A stretch of 63,875 bases of DNA, counting the filler, from Actinomycetota bacterium (GTDB lineage Bacteria > Actinomycetota > Acidimicrobiia > IMCC26256 > VFJJ01): assembly GCA_009886115.1 (NCBI GenBank). It is 5 parts of 5 records of this genome, joined end to end, with 100 filler letters (N's around TTAATTAATTAA, not from the genome) between each part and the next. Parts side by side here need not be neighbours in the genome. Positions count along the whole stretch, not along the records: positions 39,842 to 51,160 come from VFJJ01000159.1; 4 more parts are not named here. The stretch is one strand, 5' to 3'. Positions 39,742-53,681 of the stretch are shown here, piece by piece. A model generated the notes under the pieces. That model made no database searches, was not told where the DNA came from, and was given only the letters and a program-made list of their open reading frames with translations. The position numbers and the translations under genes were made by a program. Numbering within the stretch: the stretch's first letter is position 1; each line of letters opens with the position of its first letter.

Positions 39742-39841
39742 NNNNNNNNNNNNNNNNNNNNNNNNNNNNNNNNNNNNNNNNNNNNTTAATTAATTAANNN
39801 NNNNNNNNNNNNNNNNNNNNNNNNNNNNNNNNNNNNNNNNN
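39742..39841. other. Artificial contig-joining linker
   Basis: N-run + TTAATTAATTAA + N-run. Confidence 0.97.
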
Positions 39842-39879
39842 GCGCCCAGAGCCGGCGCAGACGCAAAGAAACCGAAGGC

Positions 39880-41082
39880 CTACCGGCCCGAGAGCGCCTT
39901 GAGGTTGTCGCGCAGTGCCAGGCGCTGCTCGCCAGGGTCGAGGCGGGCGAAGTCGGGCAGCCAGGCTCGGGGCACCGAGAGGCCCTCGGGGTGGGGCCAG
40001 TCGGAACCGAGGAGAACACGGTCGGCGCCGATGGCGTCGCGCGTCACCCGGATGTCGTCCTCGTAGAACGGTGCCACCCAGACGTGCTCACGGAGCGACT
40101 CGACCGGATCGCGTCCGAAGAGCTGCGGCGTCTTGCCGTACGAGATCTTGAAGCGCCGCACGAGCTCGGGCACCCAGCCCGCGCCGAGCTCGAGGGTGGC
40201 CACTCGCATCGTGGGATGCCGGTCGAAGACGCCATGGCAGATGATCGCCGCAAGGGTGTCGAAGATCGGGCGATCGATGTGGACGCTGAGCACCTCCGTG
40301 AGGGGCGACGCCTTCAAGCCCGTGAAGCGGGCGTACTCGCCCCAGTCCTTGAGGTACTTGCCGTAGCCGGAATCGGCGGCGTGGAACGCGACCACCACAC
40401 CGGCCTCGGCAGCCATCGCCCACACGCGGTCGTGCATGGGATCGCCGAGCGAGCGGTGCCGGCCGGGGACCGCCACCGGAGCCGGCCGCAGGGTCACGAA
40501 CTTGGCGCCGAGCGCGATGACCCGGGCCAGCTCGACCTCGGCCGCGACCGGGTCGATGAGCGAGATCAACGGGCCGGTCTGGATTCGACCATCGCGGTCG
40601 TATCCCCAGTCGTCGTCGAGCCAACGGTTGTAAGCCCGGAAGATGGCGTTGAGCGCCTCGACGTCGTCGACGAGCATCTCCTCCAGGCCCAGTCCCAGGC
40701 TGGGCAACAGCCAGGCCATGTCGACTCCCTGAGCGTCGAGCGACGCCACCCGCGCCGCACGGTCGCGGTACTCGGGCTGGATCCGCTGGATCTCGATGAT
40801 GTCGCGCAGCTCCCTGCCCTCGGTGTTCTCGGCCCGGAAGTAGACCTCGAGCGAGCCGGGCGCCCCGACCGGGTCGTAGGTGGGGTTCGGGATCATCGCC
40901 AGCAGCCGCTCATTGACCATGAGCGTGCGGCGCCCGTCGACATCGATCCAGCGGACCACCCTCTGGAAGTCGCGTTCGATGTGACGATGGATCGCGTCCT
41001 CGGCCTCGTAGTAGTGCTGGTCGGCGTCGTACAGGCCGTAGTCGACCGCGACATCGGTCGTCTGGGTCTCGAGCATCGCCAT
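39880..41082 (-). CDS. Amidohydrolase family 2 protein
   Basis: DADQHYYE, AYNRWL, FHAADSGY, LGSDWPHPEG. Confidence 0.9.
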   Translation of the reverse strand: MAMLETQTTDVAVDYGLYDADQHYYEAEDAIHRHIERDFQRVVRWIDVDGRRTLMVNERLLAMIPNPTYDPVGAPGSLEVYFRAENTEGRELRDIIEIQRIQPEYRDRAARVASLDAQGVDMAWLLPSLGLGLEEMLVDDVEALNAIFRAYNRWLDDDWGYDRDGRIQTGPLISLIDPVAAEVELARVIALGAKFVTLRPAPVAVPGRHRSLGDPMHDRVWAMAAEAGVVVAFHAADSGYGKYLKDWGEYARFTGLKASPLTEVLSVHIDRPIFDTLAAIICHGVFDRHPTMRVATLELGAGWVPELVRRFKISYGKTPQLFGRDPVESLREHVWVAPFYEDDIRVTRDAIGADRVLLGSDWPHPEGLSVPRAWLPDFARLDPGEQRLALRDNLKALSGR

Positions 41083-41189
41083 CTGATCGCCTCTCGTCCG
41101 AGCCCGAACCGGCGGTCGTGCACGGCGATCCGGGCCTCGTTCACGCCGACCTCGACGGCCGGACCACCGACACACGATACCCCGTGTCC

Positions 41190-41211
41190 CGGCAATCTGA
41201 CGGAACTGTCA
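41190..41211 (+). promoter_or_regulatory. Putative operator, TGAC-N6-GTCA, copy 2
   Basis: CGGCAATCTGACGGAACTGTCA, in the divergent intergenic region between the amidohydrolase and the CoA transferase. Confidence 0.65.
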
Positions 41212-41309
41212 ACAATGGTCGGAGCCTTCGCGCCCTACCTGCGACAGCGGCGCCTCCGATGTCGCGCCATCTCCTCGATGGTGCACCGCCCGGCTAGCCT
41301 CCGCGGCTC

Positions 41310-42512
41310 ATGACCGACGCTCACGAGCCGCCGTGGCCGCCAGACACCACGACGATCACCTACGCCGACGGGGCCGACAGCGCCCGGGTGAGCCCGGACG
41401 AGGTCGCACGATTGGCCGGCATCGGAAGCGCCCGCCCGCCCGAGCTGCTCCTCGGCTGGACCCCCGAAGACCGTCCGTGGCTGGCCGATCCGCATCTCCG
41501 GGGCCGCACCGTGATGGCCGGCTACGCGTTGGCGCCCGCAGTGGCCGACGGACGCCTGCGCTACGTCCCCGTGCGGCTCTCAGCGATCCTCCGATTGGTC
41601 GGCCAGGTGCAGCCCGATGTCGTCGTGGTCGCCGGGATTCGTCGAGGAGCCACGTTGGCGTTCAAGGGAACGGTGGGTTGGGGACGCACGGCAGCCGCTC
41701 AGGCTCCGCGGGTCGTGGTGGAGATCGACGACGACGCGCCCGATCTCGGCGCGCCCGAGATCCCAGGCACCGTCGTGGCCACGGTTTCTCGCCTCGGCGG
41801 CCGCGACACGGCAGCGGCGCGGCCGGCCGACGACGTCGACCTCGCGATCGGCCGCCACGTGGTGTCATTGCTGCCGGCCCTCCCCACGCTCCAGTTCGGG
41901 CCCGGCGGTATCGGCGAAGGCATCGTCGCCAGCCTCACCAGCCCGGTCCGGATCTTCTCGGGTCTGGTCACCGACGCCATGGCACTCCTCGATGATCGGG
42001 GCTTGCTCGACGGCAAGGTGCGGGCGGGGTATGTGTTCGGGGGTCAGGCCATCGCCGATCTGGCGCGACGCGGTCGACTGGAGCTGTTGCCGATCGAGCA
42101 GACGCACGATCTCACCGTGGTCTCGGCCATCCCCCGCTTCGTGGCCTGCAACACTGCGTTGCAGGTCTCGCTCGACGGGTCGGTCAACGTCGAGCAGGTC
42201 GGGGGTCGGGTCGTGGCCGGAATAGGCGGACATCCCGACTACGCCGCCGCCGCCGCCCGCTCGCCCGGCGGACTCTCGGTCATCGCGCTGCGATCGATCA
42301 CCCGGTCGGGAGCATCGACGATCGTGACCCGGGTCGAGGTCGTGTCGACACCCCGCTGCGACGTCGATGCCGTCGTCACCGAGCACGGAGTCGCCGACCT
42401 CCGAGGGCTCGACCCGGCCGAGCGAGCGGGCCGCATCGCGCTGGTCGCGGCGCCCGAGCATCGGCCCGGGCTGATCGCCGCCGCGGCAGCGGCGGCAGGA
42501 GGCTCGGCGTGA
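41310..42512 (+). CDS. Acetyl-CoA hydrolase/transferase family (4-hydroxybutyrate CoA-transferase-like)
   Basis: TLQFGPGGIG, ACNTALQVSLDG.VN, GIGGHPDY, VVTEHGVADL, AAPEHR. Confidence 0.85.
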   Translation: MTDAHEPPWPPDTTTITYADGADSARVSPDEVARLAGIGSARPPELLLGWTPEDRPWLADPHLRGRTVMAGYALAPAVADGRLRYVPVRLSAILRLVGQVQPDVVVVAGIRRGATLAFKGTVGWGRTAAAQAPRVVVEIDDDAPDLGAPEIPGTVVATVSRLGGRDTAAARPADDVDLAIGRHVVSLLPALPTLQFGPGGIGEGIVASLTSPVRIFSGLVTDAMALLDDRGLLDGKVRAGYVFGGQAIADLARRGRLELLPIEQTHDLTVVSAIPRFVACNTALQVSLDGSVNVEQVGGRVVAGIGGHPDYAAAAARSPGGLSVIALRSITRSGASTIVTRVEVVSTPRCDVDAVVTEHGVADLRGLDPAERAGRIALVAAPEHRPGLIAAAAAAAGGSA

Positions 42513-43570
42513 GCGTGGCGGGCGCATCGGATGCATCGGACGCATCGGACGCAGCGGGGGCAGCGGGCCCCACGGCGCTCCCTGGTGTCGACGCCGTCTC
42601 CGTCGAGCGGTGGATGCTCGCCACGATCTCCGATCTCGTGGCGCCGATCGCGTTCTCGCTCATCAGCGGCGGTCACTCCAACCTCACCTACGTCGCCGAG
42701 GACGCGTCGGGCCGTCGGTGCGTTGTGCGCCGCCCACCGCTCGGGTCAGGCTCGACCCGAGCCCACGACATGGGCCGCGAGCACCGCGTGATGGCGGCAT
42801 TGGCACCCACGTCGGTGCCCGTCCCGCAGATGCTGGGCCTGTGCACCGACGAGACCGTGAACGAGCGTCCCTTCTACGTGATGGGCCACGTCGATGGGCA
42901 TGTGATCGCCAACCCCGGCGAGGCCGACCGGCTCCTGAACCCTGCGGTCCGTCAGCATGCGAGCGAGTCGATCGTCGACGTTCTCGCCGATCTGCACGGC
43001 ATCGACGTCGACGCGGTCGGGCTGGGAGACGCCGCGAAGCGTGAACACTTCCTCGAGCGCCAGTTGGCCCGCATGCACGCGGTCTGGAAGCAGAACCAGA
43101 CTCGTGAGCTCACGACCATCGACGACCTGCATGCGCGCCTGGTGGCGACGCAGCCCGAACAGCGCTACACGGGGATCGTCCACTCCGACTACCGGTTCGG
43201 CAACGTGATGGTCTCACCGACGGGCGAGATGCTCGCCGTGCTCGACTGGGAGCTCTGGACCCTCGGCGACGTGCTGGCCGACGTGGGATTCCTGCTCAAC
43301 AACTGGTACGAACCCAACGAGTCGACGCCGCTGGTGTGGATGGAGATACCGCCCACCATGGCCGGCGGTTTCTCGTCGCGCCACGACGTGATCGATCGAT
43401 ACACGGCCCGCACGGGATTCGACCTGAGCGACATCGACCCCCCGGTTCTTTGTGGCCCACGTTGCTCAGGGCGTGACCGCGGCCACAAAGAACGCGGTAG
43501 GGCGGGCGGGCTGGGCAGGCTGGGCCGGGCTGGGCTCAGGTACGCCACGGGCCCTGGGTCGGGTTCTTGA
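42509..43570 (+). CDS. APH-family phosphotransferase (ACAD10/11 N-domain-like); C-terminus apparently replaced after ~43438
   Basis: SGGHSNLTY, HDMGRE, HSDYRFGN, LDWE. The post-LSDID helix present in paralog 44751 is missing. Confidence 0.82.
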   Translation: MSVAGASDASDASDAAGAAGPTALPGVDAVSVERWMLATISDLVAPIAFSLISGGHSNLTYVAEDASGRRCVVRRPPLGSGSTRAHDMGREHRVMAALAPTSVPVPQMLGLCTDETVNERPFYVMGHVDGHVIANPGEADRLLNPAVRQHASESIVDVLADLHGIDVDAVGLGDAAKREHFLERQLARMHAVWKQNQTRELTTIDDLHARLVATQPEQRYTGIVHSDYRFGNVMVSPTGEMLAVLDWELWTLGDVLADVGFLLNNWYEPNESTPLVWMEIPPTMAGGFSSRHDVIDRYTARTGFDLSDIDPPVLCGPRCSGRDRGHKERGRAGGLGRLGRAGLRYATGPGSGS

Positions 43571-44720
43571 CGAGCTTCTTGGCCACGACCTCGCGGTGCA
43601 CCTCATCGGGGCCGTCGTAGATCCTGGCGTAGCGCGCTTCGCGGTACATCCACTCCAGCGGGGTGTCGGACGTGACGCCGAGCGCGCCGTGCACCTGGAT
43701 GGCCCGGTCGATCACGTCGTGCAGGAGCTGGGCCCCGCGGAACTTGATGAGCGATATCTCGATGCGGCCTTCCGAGCCGCGGTCGACGGCCTCGGCAGCA
43801 GCGAGCGTCATCGCCCGGTGCGAGAAGATGTCGGCGGCCGACTCGGCGATGTAGTGCTGTATCTGTCCCTTATGCGACAGCGGCGCGCCACCGACCACAC
43901 GCTCGTTGGCCCGGGCGCACATCAGCTCGAAGGCCCGCTGCATCTGGCCCAGCCAGCGCATGCAATGGAAGATCCGGCCCGGTCCCAGGCGGCGCTGTGC
44001 GATCACGAAACCCTCGCCCCTCTCCCCGAGCAGGTTCTCGCGCGGCACGCGCACGTCGGTGAGCCGGATCTCGCAGTGCGCCCCCAGCGTGCTGCCGAGC
44101 GTCGAGAGGACGCGGACAACCTCGTAGCCCGGCGAGTCGGTCGGGACGATGATCGCCGAGAAACGCTTGTGCCGATTGGTCTCCTCGGGCTCGGTGATCG
44201 CGAAGATCGTCGTGAACGAGGCGATGTTCGCTCCGGTCGTGAACCACTTGTGGGCGTTGACGACCCACTCGTCGCCGTCGAGCACCGCCGTGGCAGCCAT
44301 GGTCGTGGGGTCGGAACCCGGGTTCTCGGGCTCGGTCATCCCGATGGACGACCGGATCTCACCAGCCACGAGCGGGGCGAGCCAGCGCCGCTTGTGCTCG
44401 TCGCTGCCGTAGCGGTTGAGCATGATCGAGTCCTGCATCGACCAGGTCCCGACGGTGCTCTGACCGAAGAACGACCGTCCGATGATCTCGTTGAGATGGG
44501 TGATGGCCATGAACCCCAGGCCCCCGCCACCGATCTCCTCGGGATGACCCAACGCCCACAACCCCCGGGCCTTGGCCTCGGCCTTGAGCCGCTCCATGGC
44601 CACGAGAGAATCAAGGCTGGCTTCTCGCAGCACGGTCTCGGCCGGGATCACCTCGCCATCGATGAAGTCCCGCATCCGTTCCAGCACATCCCGGAGCTCG
44701 CCGTCGACAACGCTGGCCAT
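43536..44720 (-). CDS. Acyl-CoA dehydrogenase (ACAD10/11/FadE2-like)
   Basis: MTEP, KWFTTGA, AQRRLGPGRIFHCMR, QVHGALG, RIYDGPDEVH. Confidence 0.92.
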   Translation of the reverse strand: MASVVDGELRDVLERMRDFIDGEVIPAETVLREASLDSLVAMERLKAEAKARGLWALGHPEEIGGGGLGFMAITHLNEIIGRSFFGQSTVGTWSMQDSIMLNRYGSDEHKRRWLAPLVAGEIRSSIGMTEPENPGSDPTTMAATAVLDGDEWVVNAHKWFTTGANIASFTTIFAITEPEETNRHKRFSAIIVPTDSPGYEVVRVLSTLGSTLGAHCEIRLTDVRVPRENLLGERGEGFVIAQRRLGPGRIFHCMRWLGQMQRAFELMCARANERVVGGAPLSHKGQIQHYIAESAADIFSHRAMTLAAAEAVDRGSEGRIEISLIKFRGAQLLHDVIDRAIQVHGALGVTSDTPLEWMYREARYARIYDGPDEVHREVVAKKLVKNPTQGPWRT

Positions 44721-44750
44721 CAGCTGTTCCTCTCGAGGAGTTGGAAGGTC

Positions 44751-45848
44751 TCACACGTGCAACAGGTCGGCTGCTTCTTCGAGGTGACGGCCGACGCTCT
44801 CGCCCAGGTCGACGGACTCCCGCGCCCCGGCGTCATCGCCGTGCCCGGCATCGGATCCAGGTCGGTCGGCGGCCCGTCCGAGGAAGCGTTGACGGGTGAA
44901 GATGGCTTCCTTGATGATCGCCGCTCGCCAATGCTCGAAGGCCAGATAGAAGTCGAGAGCCGACACGTCGCGCCCTGTCGCTCGGGCATAGCCCTCGGCC
45001 AGCTCGCTCGACGACGCGAACCCCGGATGCTCGGCGATGAGCTGGCTCTCGTGCGTGAGCCGGCCCCGGGTGCGGTCCCAGTACACGATGAGATGGGCCA
45101 GGTCGGTGAGTGGATCGCCCAGGGTCGACATCTCCCAGTCGAGCACCGCTGCCACGCCGGGCTCGGGGTCGGCCTCGAGGTCGATCAGCATGTTTCCCAG
45201 GCGGTAGTCGCCGTGCACCAGGGTGGCATCGGCATGGAGTGGAACCAGCTCGAGGAGACGCCGGCCCAAGCGGTCGACGGCTGGATGGTCGCGATGCTCG
45301 GCCTGCTCCCACTGCGCCATCCACCGGCCGATGCGCCGGGCCACGAACCCGTCGGGACGACCGAGAGCGCCCAGTCCGACCTCAGCCGGGTCGATACGGT
45401 GCAGCCGATCGAGCACCTCGACCACCGCCTCCGACACCGCCCGGGCCTCGTGGGCTTGAAGAGTGGCCACGTCGGCCCGTCGATGGAACACCGAGCCGTG
45501 CACGCAGCTCATGGCGTAGAACGGGGCGCCCACGATGGTCTCGTCGTCGCAGAAGCCGTAGACCACGGGGATGGGCAGACCGCTCGACTGCAGCGCCGAC
45601 AGCACGGTGAACTCGCGCCGCATGTCGTGGGCCCCAGGCGCCACATGGCCGAGCGGTCGACGACGAACCACGTGCTCGTGCCGACCCGACCGGACGAGAT
45701 ACGTGAGGTTCGACAACCCTCCGCTCAGAACCGACACGTCGAGGACCGTTCCGGCGGGACCGCGATCGTCGAGCGCCACCCCCGCCTCGGCCAGGAAGCG
45801 GCGTAGTGCCACGACGTCGACGAGGTCGAGCTCTGCGGTGTCGCTCAT
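44751..45848 (-). CDS. APH-family phosphotransferase
   Basis: SGGLSNLTY, HDMRRE, HGDYRLGN, LDWEMSTLGDP. Confidence 0.9.
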   Translation of the reverse strand: MSDTAELDLVDVVALRRFLAEAGVALDDRGPAGTVLDVSVLSGGLSNLTYLVRSGRHEHVVRRRPLGHVAPGAHDMRREFTVLSALQSSGLPIPVVYGFCDDETIVGAPFYAMSCVHGSVFHRRADVATLQAHEARAVSEAVVEVLDRLHRIDPAEVGLGALGRPDGFVARRIGRWMAQWEQAEHRDHPAVDRLGRRLLELVPLHADATLVHGDYRLGNMLIDLEADPEPGVAAVLDWEMSTLGDPLTDLAHLIVYWDRTRGRLTHESQLIAEHPGFASSSELAEGYARATGRDVSALDFYLAFEHWRAAIIKEAIFTRQRFLGRAADRPGSDAGHGDDAGARESVDLGESVGRHLEEAADLLHV

Positions 45849-46825
45849 GCGTCGGTCACCACCGGTGCGCGCAGCTCGGGCGTGCGCGGTACCCGTCGGG
45901 CAGAGATGAGTTGTTGGCCGATCTCACGGGTGAGGTGATCGGCCGAGCCGAGCAAGGCGTCGAGCATCTGTCCCCGCCGGATGAACCGATGGAACCCATG
46001 GTCGACGGTGAACGCGATGCCCCCGTGCACCTGATGGCAGTGCGTTGCTGCGAGGCGATGGGCTCGGCCAGCAAGGCACTTCGCCGCCATGGCGGTGAGC
46101 GGGTCGGTGTCGGTCCATGCCGTGTCGAGCGCCGACTGCGCTGCGCTGACGGCCACCCGAACGTCGGCGAGCCGATGCTTCACTGCCTGGAACGCTCCGA
46201 TCGGACGGCCGAACTGATGCCGGGCGAGGACGTACTCGACGGTCGTCGCGAGCATGGCCTCGCTGACCCCGATCAGCTCACCGGCCAGGAAGCGCCTCCC
46301 GGCGGCCAGGGCTCCGACCCAGGCCGACGCCGGAGCGATCGTCGCGTCGGGCCCGGCGTCGAGGGAGCCAGCAGCGCGGCTGAGGGCCAGCGTTCCGTCA
46401 CCGCCGCGTATCGGAGTGAGCTCGACGGAGCCCGAGCCGAGCATCACCAGACCGTCGTCGCAGGCCACCACGAAACGCTCGGCCCGCTGGTGCCCGGTCA
46501 GCACCAGGCCGTCGACGAGGAGCGCTGACGCCGCGCCCGTCGCCCCGCGTTCGGCCAGCCGTCGCATGGGCGCCAGCACGACGGAGGTCGTGGTGTCGAC
46601 GCGCAGTCCGGCGCCGTGGAGCATCACGAGATCGAGCGCCGGAGTGGCCGCGAGGGCGCGACCATGCTCGTCGGCCAGCAGACCGATGGCCACCGCGGGT
46701 TCGACGTCGAGCAACTCGACCCAGCCCGCATCGACCAACGCGGCGGGCACGGCGGCCGGGGGGGCCGAAGCCAGCAGGTGACGGAGCGAGCCCCGGACGA
46801 GCGCGATCTCATCGAGATCCATCAT
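45845..46825 (-). CDS. Acyl-CoA dehydrogenase, truncated partner subunit of a heteromeric pair
   Basis: RHQFGRPIGAFQAVKH, QVHGGIAFT; degenerate N-terminal part. Confidence 0.85.
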   Translation of the reverse strand: MMDLDEIALVRGSLRHLLASAPPAAVPAALVDAGWVELLDVEPAVAIGLLADEHGRALAATPALDLVMLHGAGLRVDTTTSVVLAPMRRLAERGATGAASALLVDGLVLTGHQRAERFVVACDDGLVMLGSGSVELTPIRGGDGTLALSRAAGSLDAGPDATIAPASAWVGALAAGRRFLAGELIGVSEAMLATTVEYVLARHQFGRPIGAFQAVKHRLADVRVAVSAAQSALDTAWTDTDPLTAMAAKCLAGRAHRLAATHCHQVHGGIAFTVDHGFHRFIRRGQMLDALLGSADHLTREIGQQLISARRVPRTPELRAPVVTDA

Positions 46826-47988
46826 CGCCCCCTCGGGAGGCCGAGGAGGCGCTCGGCCACCAGGTCGCGCTGCACCTCGGCGGCACCGCCGTAGATCGTG
46901 GTGATCCGCGAGAACGTCCACCGTCGGCGCCAGGCTTCGGCCGCCTCGTCGTCATCGATCTCCAAAGCGGGCCACAACACGGTGCGGGCGGTGTCGGTGA
47001 GCGTCTGCTCGGCCGAGCTCAGGAGCAGCTTGTCGATGGAGATCTCGGGGCCGAGCTGACGGCCGCTGTCGAGTGCCGCCAATGTGGCGCTGCAGCGAGC
47101 CCGCAACGCCAACAAGCCCAGGTAGGTGCTCCCCACGAGATCGGCCGTGGTGCCAGAATCGCCATGCGACACATGGTCCAGGAGCTCCTCGAGCTGGGTG
47201 AGCAACTCGGCTTGACGCTGCCAGGCGTACGCGCCCCGCTCGAACTGCAGCAGGTACATGACGACCGCCCAGCCCTCACCAACGCCACCAACCACGTGCT
47301 CCGGGCCCACCTTCACGTCGTCGAGGAACACCTCCGAGACCTCCGACCGTCCGCTCTCGCAAGCCGTCGGGCGCACGGTGACCCCCGGGCTGTGGAGATC
47401 GACCCAGAACATGGTGAGACCGCGGTAGCCGCGTTCGTCGTCACCGGTACGAGCCAACACCGCGCTGTACCGGGCGATGTGGCCGTTGCTCGTCCACATC
47501 TTCTGGCCGTTGATCCGATGGCCCTCGCCGTCGGGGACGGCCCTGGTGCGCAACGAGCCCAGATCACTGCCGGCGTCGGGTTCCGAGAAGCCCTGACACC
47601 ACACCTCGTCGCCACGGAGGCCCGGCACCAGGTGCACCGCCGCCAACCACTGCGCGTACCCCACGAGCATGGGCGCGATGATCTCGACACTGCCCAAGCC
47701 GCCGGGCAGGGCCTGACCCGACGCAGCGAGCTCGTCGAGCACGAGGGCTCGTTGCAGGCTCGACCCGCCGAGGCCCCCCATGCTCTCGGGCCAGCCCAGC
47801 CGGGTCCAGCCCGCATCGCACAGCAAGCGCTGCAGACCGTGGAAGTGGGCGAAGGAGTCGGCCAGGTCACCCACGGGCTCAGTGCGATACGGCGCCAGGA
47901 CCGTCGAGTTGTCGGCCAGCCACCGTCGGAAGGACGCTCGAACCTCGTCGAGCGTCGCCGTGGGATCCGCCACGATCGGGCCCGTCAC
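46822..47988 (-). CDS. Acyl-CoA dehydrogenase (heteromeric pair, alpha-type)
   Basis: WCQGFSEPDAGSDL, GQKMWTS, TIYGGAAEVQ. Confidence 0.9.
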   Translation of the reverse strand: MTGPIVADPTATLDEVRASFRRWLADNSTVLAPYRTEPVGDLADSFAHFHGLQRLLCDAGWTRLGWPESMGGLGGSSLQRALVLDELAASGQALPGGLGSVEIIAPMLVGYAQWLAAVHLVPGLRGDEVWCQGFSEPDAGSDLGSLRTRAVPDGEGHRINGQKMWTSNGHIARYSAVLARTGDDERGYRGLTMFWVDLHSPGVTVRPTACESGRSEVSEVFLDDVKVGPEHVVGGVGEGWAVVMYLLQFERGAYAWQRQAELLTQLEELLDHVSHGDSGTTADLVGSTYLGLLALRARCSATLAALDSGRQLGPEISIDKLLLSSAEQTLTDTARTVLWPALEIDDDEAAEAWRRRWTFSRITTIYGGAAEVQRDLVAERLLGLPRGR

Positions 47989-49172
47989 CTGACCTCCAAC
48001 TTGGGGTAGTAGTTCTCGGGGCCGATGGCGCGCACGTCGGCCGACCAGTTGCCGTCGTAGAGCGACGGGTCACCGCCGGGGCCGGCTTCGAAGCGCCATG
48101 CTTGGCGCTTATATGTCCAGTTCTCCGGCTGCAGCCGATGGGCCTCGCGCCAGTGCCCGATCGCCCCCGGGTGATCGCCGTGACGGTGCAGGTGCTGACC
48201 CAACTCGAAATGGGCTGCCGCCCGAGACTGGTCGAGTGAGCGCACGTTCGACCGTGCCACGACCTCGTCAGGTGCGAGCGCGTAGCGACTCGCAGCGCCG
48301 AGCTCGGCCCAGTCGAGGATCATGTCGCGGTAGAGCTCGGCCTCGATCACGATCTGCTGGGTGAGCCGGAGCTGCTCGACCAACGCCGGCGGCATGGGCG
48401 AAGCGCCATCGCCTCGGACCTGGTTCATCAGCCCGAGCCCGGTGCTGGGACGGTCGGCGTTCCCCGAGCCGGCTGCATCGAAATCGCCATCGCCACCCCC
48501 GAGGTCGACGCCGCGAATCTCGTCGATGATCGGGGAACGGCCGGGGAACGCGGGCTCGGCGGGCCGGACGATCGTTCCCCGCTCATCGATCCACACGGCA
48601 TTGGGAACGTTCACGACACCGAAGAGCGCACCCATCAGGTGGGCCACGTCGACGAGCGCGATGTTCCCAGCGCCGGCCTGCTCGACGAACGGCCGGGCGA
48701 CGTCGGCGCCCCCGGTGTCGAGGGCCACCGTCACGATCGCGACGTCGGTCCCCCGGGCCTGCAACTCGTTCCTCAGCTCCTGCCACACGGGCAGATCCTG
48801 GGCACAGCCTCACCAAGATGCCCAGGAGACGATGATCACCTTCGAGCCCAGCAGCCCGCTCAGTCGGAAGGGCTCACCGTCGATCGTGGGCAACACGAGA
48901 TCGGGCGCCTCGGCCGTGGTGAGCGCTCGGCCCGTCACCGCCGACTCGGGCCCGAGGGCCCAGAGCTCACTCCCGGCATGGTTGGCTTCGCCGACGATGG
49001 CCATGCCCAGCCTGTCGGCGAGCGCCCGGACGTCGACCAACCCTGCGTCGTCCGCTGCTGATGCCGGCAGGGGCACGCAGTGCGCACCTTTGCACACACC
49101 TCGGGGTTCGACCTTCCAGCCGGTTGACGTCGCCAATTCGACCGGGTCGACCCGCAGTGACTTGAGGAGCAT
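47985..49172 (-). CDS. ResA/peroxiredoxin-like thioredoxin-fold probable selenoprotein (WASW-U-GC, Sec at codon 121) with C-terminal TPR-like helix pair
   Basis: ORFs ending at 48810 and 47985 share one frame. TGA (48812-48810) lies in APDLVLP...VSWASW*GCAQDLPVWQEL. The stop overlaps the next gene's GTG. Confidence 0.82.
48779..48795 (-). promoter_or_regulatory. Putative bacterial SECIS hairpin
   Basis: Minus strand TCTGCC-CGTGT-GGCAGG at +15 to +31 from the TGA; loop G at +22. Confidence 0.55.
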
Positions 49173-49204
49173 GTCGAACCGTACCTTCCCAGGCGGGCAA
49201 GCGA

Positions 49205-49717
49205 TCAACCCGTCGGACCGGCTTCGAACAGGTCGGCGAGGGAACCCGAGAACACCACGTCGCCGGCGTCGCGAGACCCTCGCCGGAAGCCGTCGGTGAA
49301 GTCCCAGCCGGCACGAACGGCGTCGGTCCGCGTCCAATCGAACACGCACACCCGATGCGAGATGCGCCACTCCCCTGCCCGTCGAGTGAAGTCGTCGACG
49401 TAGCGGAAGCCCACGACGTGATCGCGAGCGGGACGGTCGCCTCGCGGGGCCAAGCGGTGCAAGGCGATCGCGTAAGCCTCGCCCCGGGCCCGGTCGCCGT
49501 CGACCTCGACCAGCACGTTGCCGAGAAAGTGCATCGTGCGTTCGTAACGCGTCAGGCCGCTGGCCACGAAGGCCAGGAACTCTTCGACCCCACCGCGATA
49601 ATCGCCGTGCTCGTCGACGGCGTCCGGGTGATAGCACCCACGAACCAGGTCGAGCTCCATCCGGTCGATACCCCGGCAATAGCGGAGATAGACGTTCCTG
49701 ATCTCCTGCTCGTCCAC
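49205..49717 (-). CDS. Nuclear transport factor 2 (SnoaL-like) family protein
   Basis: YCRGIDR, YHPDA, TMHFLGN, RYVDDF..R.GEWRI. Confidence 0.88.
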   Translation of the reverse strand: MDEQEIRNVYLRYCRGIDRMELDLVRGCYHPDAVDEHGDYRGGVEEFLAFVASGLTRYERTMHFLGNVLVEVDGDRARGEAYAIALHRLAPRGDRPARDHVVGFRYVDDFTRRAGEWRISHRVCVFDWTRTDAVRAGWDFTDGFRRGSRDAGDVVFSGSLADLFEAGPTG

Positions 49718-49890
49718 GTAACGGCGGAGCTCAAGAATCAGTCGGGCGGGTCACGATCCCCCTCGGCCATCACGATGCATCGGGTCAGCAACGCAGCTCT
49801 GCGGCAGGAGCCCCCATCAACGGACGAGCCCCGACGATCGGGTGTCTCGGGTGTCAAGCAGGCCAGCCTCGAGCCTGTATCGTCTCCCCC

Positions 49891-50655
49891 ATGGTGACTG
49901 CCGACGAGAGCTCCACAGCCGCGAGCATCGCCTCTCCCGATGCTCAGGCCGAGCCCGCGACCACCGATCGTCCGAGACGGCGACGCGGCGAGTCGAGCCG
50001 GACGGGATCGAGTCGCTCGAGCTCCGATCTGGTCGTGGCGCCGCACCTGCGCCGGCCGGCGGCCGAGCTGGGTCCCCGGGCCCAGCGGACGATCGATCTG
50101 ATCCTGTCCACCACCAAGGACATCCTGCTTTCGCGAGGCTACGCGGGCACGACCATCGACGAGATCACCCGAGCGGCTGGGATCTCCCGGGCTTCGTTCT
50201 ACACGTACTTCCCTTCGAAACGTGACGTGTTGTTGGCGATGGGCCTGCACGCCCATCGCGACGCGCAAGCGGTGATCGGCCGACTGGCCAAGATCGGCGA
50301 CGACTGGAGGCTCCAAGACCTCAGATGCTGGGTCTCCGAGTACTTCGCGATGCAGGACGTCCACGGGAGCTTCTCGCTGTCGTTCATCCAGGCGGCGCAA
50401 GAGGACGACGAGTTGCTCCGTGCTGGCCGTCCGAACCTGCTGAACTTGTCGCGCCGCCTCGGCCTCATCATGGATGCCCTCCGGGGCCATCCCATGGGTG
50501 ATCCGACCCAGCAGGGGATGCTGTTGTTCAGCATGCTCGATCGGATGTGGTGGATGTGGCGTCTCGACCAAGCGCCTTTTGACGAGTCCGAGTTGCTCGA
50601 CAACACGGCCCTCGCCCTCGCTGCCCTCCTCGAAGCCCCCGAGCATCACGGCTGA
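49891..50655 (+). CDS. TetR/AcrR family transcriptional regulator
   Basis: GYAGTTIDEITRAAGISRASFYTYFPSKRDV HTH. Start uncertain. Confidence 0.9.
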   Translation: MVTADESSTAASIASPDAQAEPATTDRPRRRRGESSRTGSSRSSSDLVVAPHLRRPAAELGPRAQRTIDLILSTTKDILLSRGYAGTTIDEITRAAGISRASFYTYFPSKRDVLLAMGLHAHRDAQAVIGRLAKIGDDWRLQDLRCWVSEYFAMQDVHGSFSLSFIQAAQEDDELLRAGRPNLLNLSRRLGLIMDALRGHPMGDPTQQGMLLFSMLDRMWWMWRLDQAPFDESELLDNTALALAALLEAPEHHG

Positions 50656-50828
50656 TCGTCGGCATCCTCGTCGTCGGGGACGCGCGCTGGGACCGGCGAG
50701 ATCGGGACCTCGGTGGACGGATCGGCCGCCGCGCCAGCGTCCCCTTCGGCCACGGCCAGGAGCCGGGCCCGTTCGGCGGCTTCCTTCTTCTTCTGGGCCT
50801 CGTAGCGGAGCCCCGAGATCATGTCCAC
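50646..50828 (-). CDS. Small hypothetical protein (60 aa)
   Basis: AAGGAGG 7 nt before GTG 50828; high-GC3 codons; overlaps the end of the LLM gene. Confidence 0.45.
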   Translation of the reverse strand: MDMISGLRYEAQKKKEAAERARLLAVAEGDAGAAADPSTEVPISPVPARVPDDEDADDQP

Positions 50829-51160
50829 CGCTGGCCCTCCTTGAACATCGCCTGGTAGTCGACCCGATGCCCGCGCGCCTCGAGCTTGGGGATCACCTGC
50901 GTGCCGAGCAGCTCCAAGTTGCGGAGAACCTTCTCGTGGGGGAGATACCCGAACTGGCAGTAGCACAGGAGCTGGTCGACACCAGCCTCCTCATAGCGAA
51001 GGATCTTCTCGACGCACTCGTCGGGGGTGCCGACGATGATCATGTCCTGTTCGGTGTACCGGCCGATGTCGATGTTGCCCTCGAGCGAGGGTTTGAGCAG
51101 CGGAAAGATGAGCTCTTTCTCATCTTCTGGGAGGTGCGCAAGCTCCCATTGGAGCGTGAA
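50819..51160 (-). CDS. LLM-class flavin-dependent oxidoreductase, C-terminal part (5' lost in gap)
   Basis: IIVGTPDECVEKILRYEEAGVDQLL...LELLGTQVIP. Confidence 0.82.
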   Translation of the reverse strand, partial: FTLQWELAHLPEDEKELIFPLLKPSLEGNIDIGRYTEQDMIIVGTPDECVEKILRYEEAGVDQLLCYCQFGYLPHEKVLRNLELLGTQVIPKLEARGHRVDYQAMFKEGQRWT

Positions 51161-51260
51161 NNNNNNNNNNNNNNNNNNNNNNNNNNNNNNNNNNNNNNNN
51201 NNNNTTAATTAATTAANNNNNNNNNNNNNNNNNNNNNNNNNNNNNNNNNNNNNNNNNNNN
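51161..51260. other. Artificial contig-joining linker
   Basis: N-run + TTAATTAATTAA + N-run. Confidence 0.97.
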
Positions 51261-51365: not shown

Positions 51366-53681
51366 TCAGGCGCCGGGCGTGCGGCCGGGGACGATGCGGT
51401 AGGCCTCGTAGACCGAGTCGATCCGCTTGATGGCGGCGACGATGGTGTTGAGATGGCCCGGGTCGGCCATCTCAAAGTCGAACTTGAGGACGGCGATCCG
51501 GTCGGACGAGGTGGTCGTGGAGCAGCCGAGGATGTTGACGTGGTAGTCGGCCATCACGTCGGCGATGTCGCGCAGCAGCCGGGAGCGGTCGAGCGCCTCG
51601 ACCTGCACCGACACGATGTAGGTGCCGCCCGAGCGCCCGTCCCACTCCACCTCGATGAGCCGGCCCTCGTGGGTGCGCAGCGACGCCGCGTTGGCACAGT
51701 CGGCCCGGTGCACCGACACGCCGCGGCCCCGGGTGACGAAGCCGATGATCTCGTCGCCCGGCACCGGCGTGCAGCAGCGCGACAGCCGCACCATCACGTC
51801 GTCGAGGCCTTCGACGTGCACGCCGACGCGCTGGTCCTTGCGGCCGGGCGACTTCCGGTTGGGATGACGGGCCGTGGTGGGGATCTGCTCCTCACCCCCA
51901 CGAAGCTCGCGCTGGAGCCGCTGAGCGATGGCCCGGGCCGACACGTGGTTCTCGGCGATGGCCACGCACAGCGCGTCGACATCGCCGTAGTTCATCTCCT
52001 TGGCGACCTGGGTCAGCATGGCCGAGCCGGCAATGCGCTGCACGGGCAGGCCCTCGCGACGCAGCTCCTTCATGAGCTCGTCGCGCCCGGTCTCCATGGC
52101 GTCTTCGCGACGTTCGCGCGAGAACCAGTGCCGGATCTTGCTCCGGGCCCGTGGAGTGACGGCGAACTTCAACCAGTCGCGACTCGGCCCCGCCCCTTCC
52201 ACCTTGGACGTGAAGATCTCGACGGCATCACCCGACTGCAGCGTGGAGTCGAGCGACACCAGCTTGCCGCTCACCCGGCTCCCGATGCACCGGTGGCCCA
52301 CCTCGGTGTGGATCGCGTAGGCGAAGTCGACCGGCGTGGCACCCGTGGGCAGGGCGATGAGATCGCCCTTGGGCGTGAAGATGAACACCTCGTCCTGTTC
52401 GAGGTCGAACTTCAGGTGCTCCATGAACTCGCCGGGGTCGGTGGTCTCCGACTGCCAGTCGACGAGGTTGCGCAGCCAACCGAGATCGGCGGTGCCCTGG
52501 TCGCGGTCCTTGTACCCGTAGTGCGCCGCGATGCCCACCTCGGCCCGCTGGTGCATCTCCCGGGTCCGGAGCTGGACCTCGACCGGCTTGCCCTGGGGCC
52601 CCACCACCGTCGTGTGCAACGACTGGTAGAGGTTGAACTTGGGCATGGCGATGTAGTCCTTGAAGCGCCCCTGGATCGGGTTCCACAGGGCGTGAATGGA
52701 CCCGAGCGCCCCGTAGCTGTCCTTCACCGAGTCGACGATGACCCGCACGCCCACGAGGTCGTGGATCTCGTCGAACTCCTTGCCCTTGACGACCATCTTC
52801 TCGTAGATCGACCAGTAGTGCTTGGGCCGGCCGGTGACCTCGGCGTCGATGTGCACCTCGGCGAGCACCTCGGAGATCTGGGCGACGACATCCTTCAGAT
52901 AGGCCCGGCCCTCGGGTGCACGGGTGGCGACCATCTGCTCGATCTCGGCGTAGCGCTTGGGGTGCATGACCGAGAAGGCCAGGTCCTCGAGCTGCCACTT
53001 GAGCTCACCCACGCCGAGGCGGTGCGCCAGCGGGGCGTACACGTCGAGGGTCTCGCGAGCGATGCGCTGCTGCTTGACCTCGGGCAGCGCGGCGATGGTG
53101 CGCAGGTTGTGGAGCCGATCGGCGAGCTTGATGAGCAGGACCCGCAGGTCCTTGGCCATGGCCACGAGCATCTTGCGCATCGTGGCGGCCTGTTGTGCCT
53201 CCTTCGAGTCGAACTGGAGGCGATCGAGCTTGGTGACCCCGTCGACGATCTCGGCGACATCCTTGCCCACCTGGGCCTCGAGGTCGCCGACGGTGAGCGG
53301 CGTGTCCTCGACGGCATCGTGAAGCAGCGCCGCCGCCAACGTGACATCGTCCATCCCCAGCCCGGCGAGGATGGTGGCCACGGCGATGGGGTGCGTCACG
53401 TACGGCTCGCCGCTCTTGCGGACCTGATCGCGATGACGATCGTCGGCGATCAGGAACGCCCGCTCGATCAGCTCGATGCTCGAGGAGGGATGGTGGCGGC
53501 GGAACACGTCGAGCAGGTGGGCGAACTCACGCTCGATCGGGGTGCGCTGCCAGGGCGCCGGGCCGATGGGCTCGGGGGCCAAGGCCTCGGCCGAGCGGCC
53601 ACCACCGTCGAGCACGACCTCGATCTCGCCTTCGGTCCCGATGCTCACCGAGGGACCCCGTCCGACCAGCACACCGTCCAC
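51366..53681 (-). CDS. relA: Bifunctional (p)ppGpp synthetase/hydrolase (long RSH)
   Basis: RKSGEPYVTHP, HD, KLADRLHN, YQSLHT, EVQLRT, TGS, CC and ACT domains. Start 53681 or 53648. Confidence 0.96.
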   Translation of the reverse strand: MDGVLVGRGPSVSIGTEGEIEVVLDGGGRSAEALAPEPIGPAPWQRTPIEREFAHLLDVFRRHHPSSSIELIERAFLIADDRHRDQVRKSGEPYVTHPIAVATILAGLGMDDVTLAAALLHDAVEDTPLTVGDLEAQVGKDVAEIVDGVTKLDRLQFDSKEAQQAATMRKMLVAMAKDLRVLLIKLADRLHNLRTIAALPEVKQQRIARETLDVYAPLAHRLGVGELKWQLEDLAFSVMHPKRYAEIEQMVATRAPEGRAYLKDVVAQISEVLAEVHIDAEVTGRPKHYWSIYEKMVVKGKEFDEIHDLVGVRVIVDSVKDSYGALGSIHALWNPIQGRFKDYIAMPKFNLYQSLHTTVVGPQGKPVEVQLRTREMHQRAEVGIAAHYGYKDRDQGTADLGWLRNLVDWQSETTDPGEFMEHLKFDLEQDEVFIFTPKGDLIALPTGATPVDFAYAIHTEVGHRCIGSRVSGKLVSLDSTLQSGDAVEIFTSKVEGAGPSRDWLKFAVTPRARSKIRHWFSRERREDAMETGRDELMKELRREGLPVQRIAGSAMLTQVAKEMNYGDVDALCVAIAENHVSARAIAQRLQRELRGGEEQIPTTARHPNRKSPGRKDQRVGVHVEGLDDVMVRLSRCCTPVPGDEIIGFVTRGRGVSVHRADCANAASLRTHEGRLIEVEWDGRSGGTYIVSVQVEALDRSRLLRDIADVMADYHVNILGCSTTTSSDRIAVLKFDFEMADPGHLNTIVAAIKRIDSVYEAYRIVPGRTPGA

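Follow-up and report, generated by a model that had tools for sequence, protein, structure and literature searches.

Thioredoxin-fold redox proteins of the ResA, TlpA and CcmG type are membrane-anchored and active outside the cytoplasm. A selenoprotein family of ResA-like proteins is described alongside them by an NCBIfam equivalog model made for that family, NF041054.1 ('WAxxUGC_long', ResA-like WAxxUGC motif-containing protein), and we know of no biochemical activity or substrate for any of its members. The family is also in print, in Table 2 of PMC2398784 and in a table of PMC13188914, where it stands under names other than WAxxUGC and is filed as 'Prx-like'; Table 3 of PMC1088965 holds one 'Prx-like protein ... 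UXC' sequence from the Sargasso Sea set, which may or may not belong to the same family. Here we have analysed a gene of this family on the minus strand of a window (the whole stretch of DNA under study, 63,875 nucleotides with filler, from the Actinomycetota bacterium assembly GCA_009886115.1), with attention to its in-frame UGA codon, the hairpin that follows it, the fold of its product and the gene cluster in which it sits.

As a whole, we consider it very likely that this is a genuine NF041054 selenoprotein with a presumed redox role and a genus-specific cluster position. The sequence features noted in a preliminary description of the same DNA are all confirmed. That description had called the gene hidden, which it is to a plain open reading frame (ORF) track only; UGC-motif ResA/Prx-like selenoproteins exist, as it also stated. 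The finding is already known, the family being curated by NCBI and in print; what is new here is one more family member and a genus-specific gene neighbourhood, and nothing beyond.

A conserved UGA codon and the hairpin that follows it

Read with TGA as selenocysteine (Sec, U), the gene gives 395 residues with a single internal TGA at codon 121, within VSWASW-U-GCAQDLP; the terminal stop is TGA too. Translation table 11 cuts it into two minus-strand ORFs (48810..49679 and 47985..48788), which had been proposed to be one frame broken by a single TGA, as is indeed the case. Plain ORF callers yield pieces of 120 and 267 codons where the read-through product is the real protein, and correcting this annotation is the main use of the result. 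The motif runs W117-A-S-W-U121-G-C123, and U121 aligns with the first Cys of W-C-x-x-C in solved ResA/TlpA-like proteins, the site at which the preliminary description had placed the TGA. Aligned to 3kcm, 'swaswcg.caqdlp' falls on 'FWATWCPpCREEIP' with a one-residue gap that is also present against the WCGPC of 3gl3; the motif is therefore U-x-C and not C-x-x-C.

Comparison among homologs shows UGA121 to be a conserved sense codon. A motif scan of 32 loci found U in 30 and C in one, all at the same place, with the last locus lacking the site at a contig end, and TGA occupies the same column in 30/30 aligned Sec forms. Homologs with Cys at this position, which had been proposed as a check, were found at three loci (L053, L083 and L085, reading WASWCGC or ATWCGC). 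A second set, the best 80 of at least 468 confirmed loci from species-representative genomes, comprised 69 Sec forms, 8 Cys forms and 3 loci without a motif match; it partly overlaps the first, as the same species collection lies behind both. Within the class, 51/201 genomes match NF041054 at E <= 1e-30, and conservation of the TGA is complete among the matches over the cut-off, all 27 of which (from 26 genomes) have exactly one TGA; among the 36 below-cut-off matches listed, 31 have one and 5 have none.

The read-through protein matches NF041054.1 at 471.6 bits (E = 1.7e-141, cut-off 300), with residues 1-393 on profile positions 1-353 of 354; its ortholog in the one congener that was searched, G201, scores 472.7 bits. 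Pfam recognises AhpC-TSA (PF00578) at residues 87-202 (38.5 bits vs a cut-off of 26) and Redoxin too, with a sub-threshold TPR_2 at 318-351, and the matches to the NCBIfam models for ResA (PRK03147; 41 bits vs a cut-off of 170) and TlpA (38.9 vs 230) stay well short of the cut-offs. The protein is of the thioredoxin-fold redox enzyme type, yet it is neither ResA nor TlpA.

Downstream of the UGA, the sequence UCUGCC-CGUGU-GGCAGG forms a hairpin at +15..+31 after the A of the UGA, where one had been noted previously. Its stem here has five Watson-Crick pairs and one U-G and lies in the codons for D-L-P-V-W-Q. Folding energy is uninformative in DNA this GC-rich, so the hairpin was judged by comparative analysis. 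RNAalifold returns a single 6-bp helix for the 30 Sec forms, joining columns 24-29 with 35-40, and 180/180 cells (6 pairs x 30 Sec forms) form standard pairs. Pair 24-40 is CG in 25 sequences, GC in 2, UA in 1 and UG in 2, while pair 25-39 is CG in 26, UA in 2 and UG in 2, with a double compensatory change in five cells at two pairs. Of 500 shuffles, none matches the alignment in covariation score or in doubly changed cells, a count that is no probability since the aligned sequences are related. Shifting the 3' partner by 1-3 columns lowers pairing to 24-74%. The stem is broken in all three Cys forms of the first set (L053, L083, L085), in which L-P-x-W-Q is still encoded, and these forms are a stronger control than the shuffles. 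A fourth locus, L084, was excluded from the comparison for lack of a motif match. Across the second set all six pairs are present in 69/69 Sec forms vs 1/8 Cys forms, the 3 loci without the motif being unscored, so that the hairpin is lost in 10/11 Cys forms over both sets. Taken together, the alignments show a conserved, covarying hairpin after UGA121 that is predicted to be SECIS-like (resembling a selenocysteine insertion sequence).

The same genome (5.45 Mb in 224 contigs, 95.6% complete) encodes the full Sec insertion machinery, the search for which had been proposed along with the gene. Matches over the cut-off were obtained for selA (458.7 bits), selB (293.7 bits, rising to 320.5 when its C-terminal piece is counted), selD (398.4 bits, on contig C57) and tRNA-Sec (66.2 bits), the last also called by ARAGORN as tRNA-SeC with anticodon TCA. 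The selA and selB genes are adjacent (G000:C73:6586-9821), and tRNA-Sec lies ~32 kb away on the same contig (C73:41490-41579). With Cys homologs aligned at codon 121, the TGA conserved and this machinery present, each of the refuting checks named in the preliminary description favoured its proposal of a UGA-recoded thioredoxin-fold selenoprotein with a TPR-like C-terminus, which is supported.

A six-frame search of the genome finds three loci that match NF041054, each with one TGA, the gene described here scoring 461.6 bits. The two further TGA-containing paralogs are at G000:C128:76925-77974 (L077) and G000:C168:5428-6465 (L082). Paralog 2 reaches 443.1 bits; paralog 3, at 250.6 bits, is below the cut-off, carries the N-terminal C-x4-C and WASWUGC with a different, shorter C-terminus, and may represent a sister subfamily for which NCBIfam has no separate model. 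In congener G201 there are five match rows at four loci (C93, C56, C270 and C324), C56 accounting for two of the rows. Record titles of the second set, loci L099-L178, which hold close relatives of this selenoprotein, name Acidimicrobiia, Frankia, Solirubrobacterales, Ktedonobacteraceae, Tepidiformaceae, Terriglobales and some proteobacterial metagenome-assembled genomes (MAGs), and a few labels, e.g., Bifidobacterium breve MAG contigs of 3-12 kb, resemble binning errors. The selenoprotein family is widespread, and it retains Sec, the U-x-C centre and a second invariant Cys pair.

Protein anatomy and proposed function

The protein divides into three: residues 1-85 form an N-terminal domain, ~87-207 a TlpA/ResA-like thioredoxin fold that helix 278-294 completes, and ~262-395 a helical, TPR-like C-terminus. 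In an alignment of 27 full-length members, the others being 45-60% identical to the window copy, the invariant residues are G18, W19, G25, C27, C32, W117, U121, G122, C123, L127, P128, W130, P190, R203 and P204, together with a C-terminal set of Y281, D287, W288, H345, P349, N351, Y354 and R356; C27, C32, U121 and C123 are the only Cys or Sec residues of the protein. The AlphaFold2 model built from the alignment has a predicted local distance difference test (pLDDT) score of 89.7 and a predicted template modelling score (pTM) of 0.88, with low confidence only at 229-245, within an insert (~224-258) not seen in the other 26 sequences. Among solved structures it matches DsbE/ResA/TlpA/CcmG-like proteins, including 3gl3_A (Z 17.7, root-mean-square deviation 2.3, 139 residues aligned) and 2f9s_A (Z 16.9), and Foldseek gives E = 2e-9 to 4e-9, including 2e-9 to 3kcm and ResA; these whole-model matches are dominated by the thioredoxin domain, model residues ~83-294.

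Fold and conservation would place Sec121 at the nucleophilic-Cys position of ResA and TlpA, at the start of helix 122-139, and conservation of the cis-Pro position (P190) would fit a TlpA-like thioredoxin fold. We propose that Sec121 acts as an exposed nucleophile and that Cys123, two residues on, resolves it as a selenenylsulfide. This spacing makes the centre U-x-C and not C-x-x-C; since C-x-C centres exceed C-x-x-C in strain and oxidising power, rapid turnover may be what the U-x-C couple is tuned for. C27 and C32, both invariant, could act as a second redox site exchanging electrons with the U-G-C centre or, alternatively, may complete a four-ligand metal site, and a protein or peptide partner or client is probably bound by the TPR-like C-terminus. 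The most likely activity is that of a Sec-dependent thiol-disulfide (or peroxide/sulfenate) reductase. In the absence of a hydrophobic N-terminal segment (the top 19-residue Kyte-Doolittle mean within the first 40 residues is 0.72), the protein is probably cytoplasmic, unlike ResA and TlpA.

Several points weigh against this account. The folding energy of the hairpin taken by itself is ordinary (z = 0.87, with 168/200 shuffles folding as well). Sec insertion is deduced from sequence comparison, and the U-x-C spacing departs from every characterised ResA or TlpA, which makes disulfide-reductase activity an extrapolation. For the N-terminal domain the whole-model searches, dominated by the thioredoxin domain, gave no fold, and the single-sequence model of it alone, at a pLDDT of 62.7, is too poor to search with; this does not make its fold a new one. 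Finally, the cytoplasmic location is read from a hydropathy scan, in which a 19-residue segment of the fold core scores 1.89.

The gene cluster and the alternative readings

The contig that carries the selenoprotein gene spans window positions 39842-51160 (G000:C125; 11,319 bp) with N spacers at both ends, and its features are collected in Table 1. The window consists of separate contigs joined by N spacers (39742-39841 and 51161-51260) that carry a TTAATTAATTAA linker; a RelA/SpoT gene at 51366..53681(-) is on another contig and hence is no neighbour of the selenoprotein gene.

Table 1. Features of the selenoprotein contig in window coordinates (ACAD, acyl-CoA dehydrogenase)
Feature	Position	Strand	Remark
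Amidohydro_2 gene	39880-41175	-	
CoA-transferase gene	41310-42512	+	
APH kinase (b) gene	42509-43570	+	
ACAD3 (acyl-CoA dehydrogenase 3)	43536..44720	-	
APH kinase (a), APH-family phosphotransferase	44751..45848	-	
ACAD2 (acyl-CoA dehydrogenase 2)	45845..46921	-	C-terminal domain alone recognised
ACAD1 (acyl-CoA dehydrogenase 1)	46822..47988	-	N, M and C domains; 388-aa ORF
Selenoprotein coding sequence	47985..49172	-	395 aa and TGA stop; NCBIfam NF041054 member
GTGA junction	47985..47988	-	selenoprotein TGA stop overlaps first GTG of ACAD1 ORF
SECIS-like hairpin (predicted)	48779..48795	-	6-bp stem, loop CGUGU
In-frame UGA, codon 121	48810..48812	-	read as selenocysteine; opens U-G-C redox motif
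SnoaL_4 (NTF2-like) gene	49205..49717	-	ends 32 nt upstream of selenoprotein start
TetR-family regulator, divergent	49891..50655	+	

At the GTGA junction, which had been described correctly, the selenoprotein stop (47987..47985) shares bases with a candidate ACAD1 start (GTG, 47988..47986) that has GGAGG 4 nt upstream; a second GTG, 5 codons into the ACAD1 ORF, is an alternative candidate. The listed ACAD2 ORF shares 100 nt with ACAD1, and because of this overlap the actual ACAD2 start is probably later than listed. Three ACAD genes and two APH-family kinases are grouped with the CoA-transferase and Amidohydro_2 genes (42509-43570, 43536-47988). We take the adjacent ACAD1 and ACAD2, the latter with a C-terminal signature only, to resemble heteromeric ACAD pairs, and the set of ACADs and APH kinase presumably resembles the chemistry by which kinases and ACADs break down 4-hydroxyacyl-CoA, as in bacterial Lva and mammalian ACAD10/11. 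Scanning 43400-51160 for promoters and terminators gave about as many candidate sites as shuffles would, three resembling terminators and one resembling a promoter, and placed none of them between SnoaL, the selenoprotein gene and ACAD1.

Beyond this genome, neighbour genes were defined by all-ORF clustering and Pfam, a crude GC3-based caller having been dropped after it misread the window's operon. Over 80 loci the commonest neighbour cluster was found at 12/80; most of the 12 cluster representatives scanned went unmatched in Pfam, and shadow ORFs probably account for several of them. Used as a query, the SnoaL_4 gene of the window matched its own locus only. A SnoaL_2/NTF2-like gene is directly upstream at three loci (L099:4513-5001, L107:415-849 and L122:4532-4993), ending <=~10 nt from the start of the selenoprotein match, and ~2.5 kb upstream in the Frankia loci L125, L128 and L129; BLAST detects no similarity between these genes and the SnoaL_4 of the window, and the co-occurrence of an NTF2-like gene with the selenoprotein could be a weak recurring pairing or chance. 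The neighbourhood is, on these comparisons, lineage-specific, and a selenoprotein gene in second place within a TetR-flanked cluster characterises the genus and not the family.

Two alternatives deny the presence of Sec in the protein. In the first, the TGA truly ends translation or else is a sequencing error or pseudogene lesion, and the two ORFs are separate or dead genes; this would accord with the two ORFs of table 11 and with the draft state of the assembly (224 contigs), but we give it next to no credence: the same-column TGA recurs in 30/30 aligned homologs and 69 further loci, including the congener at 83% identity with one TGA, and its conservation in these 99 other Sec loci, drawn from partly overlapping sets, makes a sequencing error untenable. 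Furthermore, residues on either side of the TGA are strongly conserved in one frame, and the profile match spans it. Read-through of UGA121 without Sec, e.g., by near-cognate insertion of Trp or Cys, is compatible with a case for selenium that is built from sequences, and is nonetheless very improbable. The genome holds the full Sec machinery, and the hairpin is lost in most Cys forms (7/8 in the second set and the 3/3 read earlier). The distance from UGA to hairpin is usual for bacterial SECIS elements, and the gene's own terminal TGA functions as a stop. A genuine selenoprotein remains the reading that we carry forward to the question of its neighbours.

There, the preliminary description had gone further, taking the selenoprotein for a working part of a catabolic operon, i.e., a dedicated redox component of the downstream ACAD/kinase pathway, in which selenium could gate translation through the stop/start overlap. 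The arrangement does lend itself to this: the genes are packed on one strand, with a 32-nt gap after SnoaL, the GTGA overlap and, between SnoaL, selenoprotein and ACAD1, no terminator-like site in a scan that was near shuffle expectation; moreover, the whole order TetR | SnoaL-Sec-ACAD1-ACAD2-APH-ACAD3 is kept with its GTGA junction in G201. Yet G201 is 78-97% identical across these genes at the amino-acid level (tblastn identities of 82% for the selenoprotein, 90% for ACAD1, 78% for ACAD2, 85% for APH and 97% for ACAD3), so that its synteny shows kinship more than selection. The first set gave 28 loci for this comparison (the 27 over the cut-off and paralog 3), six of which, this locus among them, have an ACAD within 4 kb; leaving out this locus and paralog 3, the count is 5/26, where 2.3 would be expected given how many ACADs each genome has (19-86; Poisson-binomial P = 0.078). 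Some of these contexts are suggestive: the genes upstream in L056, on the strand of the selenoprotein gene, include an AMP-ligase, an ACAD and an APH_6_hur kinase; TetR, AMP-ligase and ACADs are near L067 and L068, and an APH-like kinase is directly downstream in L071. Two of the five other ACAD loci, however, belong to a single family, and the five are not alike in gene order or strand. In the second set an ACAD is within 4 kb at 1/63 loci and an APH at 0/63 (the 63 being those with >=5 kb of flank, searched by tblastn with window proteins at >=70 bits, which divergent ones may escape), and no neighbour family rises above 12/80 loci. Both paralogs in this genome are without an ACAD or APH within 7 kb. 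Chance adjacency to an ACAD must be common, because the genome holds 86 ACAD C-domain matches, and ACAD1 need not depend on an upstream ribosome, because it has its own GGAGG. With synteny at the level of the genus only and a neighbourhood that is unconserved outside it, the catabolic-operon claim is weak, and we consider it unlikely. Gating of downstream translation by selenium is a possibility shared by any selenoprotein gene that heads an operon, and selection for gating is unsupported. A narrower version, in which the selenoprotein was recruited in this genus as second gene of the TetR-flanked SnoaL-Sec-ACAD-ACAD-kinase-ACAD cluster and took on a pathway role, is quite improbable in our view. 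Were it true, an oxidised enzyme or intermediate of the ACAD/kinase pathway could be what the selenoprotein repairs or reduces, a shortage of selenium that ends translation at UGA121 could leave expression of the downstream dehydrogenases uncoupled or polar, and the ACAD, kinase and AMP-ligase genes near L056, L067, L068, L071 and L079 would be traces of an older functional link.

Comparison with known redox families

The selenoprotein reading that we favour sets this protein among three groups of known proteins. With the peroxiredoxins it shares a Pfam AhpC-TSA match over the cut-off. Their peroxidatic motif is T/S-x-x-C, which is absent here, the sequence being A118-S119-W120-U121 with A118 three residues before U121; peroxiredoxins also rank below the TlpA/ResA group in structural comparison (Z 14-15 vs 15-17.7), a gap that is partly within tie range and amounts to a lean.

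With ResA, TlpA and CcmG (DsbE), as represented by 2f9s, 1jfu, 3gl3 and 1kng, it has in common the thioredoxin fold at its centre (Z 15-17.7), a nucleophile position that follows W where helix alpha-1 begins, and conservation at the cis-Pro position. In contrast to those proteins, the present one has U-G-C for C-x-x-C, a one-residue deletion, has no N-terminal membrane anchor or signal-like segment in the hydropathy scan, and adds an N-terminal C-x4-C domain and a TPR-like C-terminus.

Closest of all are the members of NF041054. This copy differs from them in an insert of ~33 residues (of low complexity and low confidence) found in it only among 27 aligned, in being the most divergent over-cut-off member seen, and in lying within an ACAD/kinase gene cluster, a setting that most members lack. 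In all else that was compared it is one of them, with a full-length match over the cut-off, W-A-S-W-U-G-C, one Sec codon, the same three-part architecture and the conserved hairpin after the UGA.

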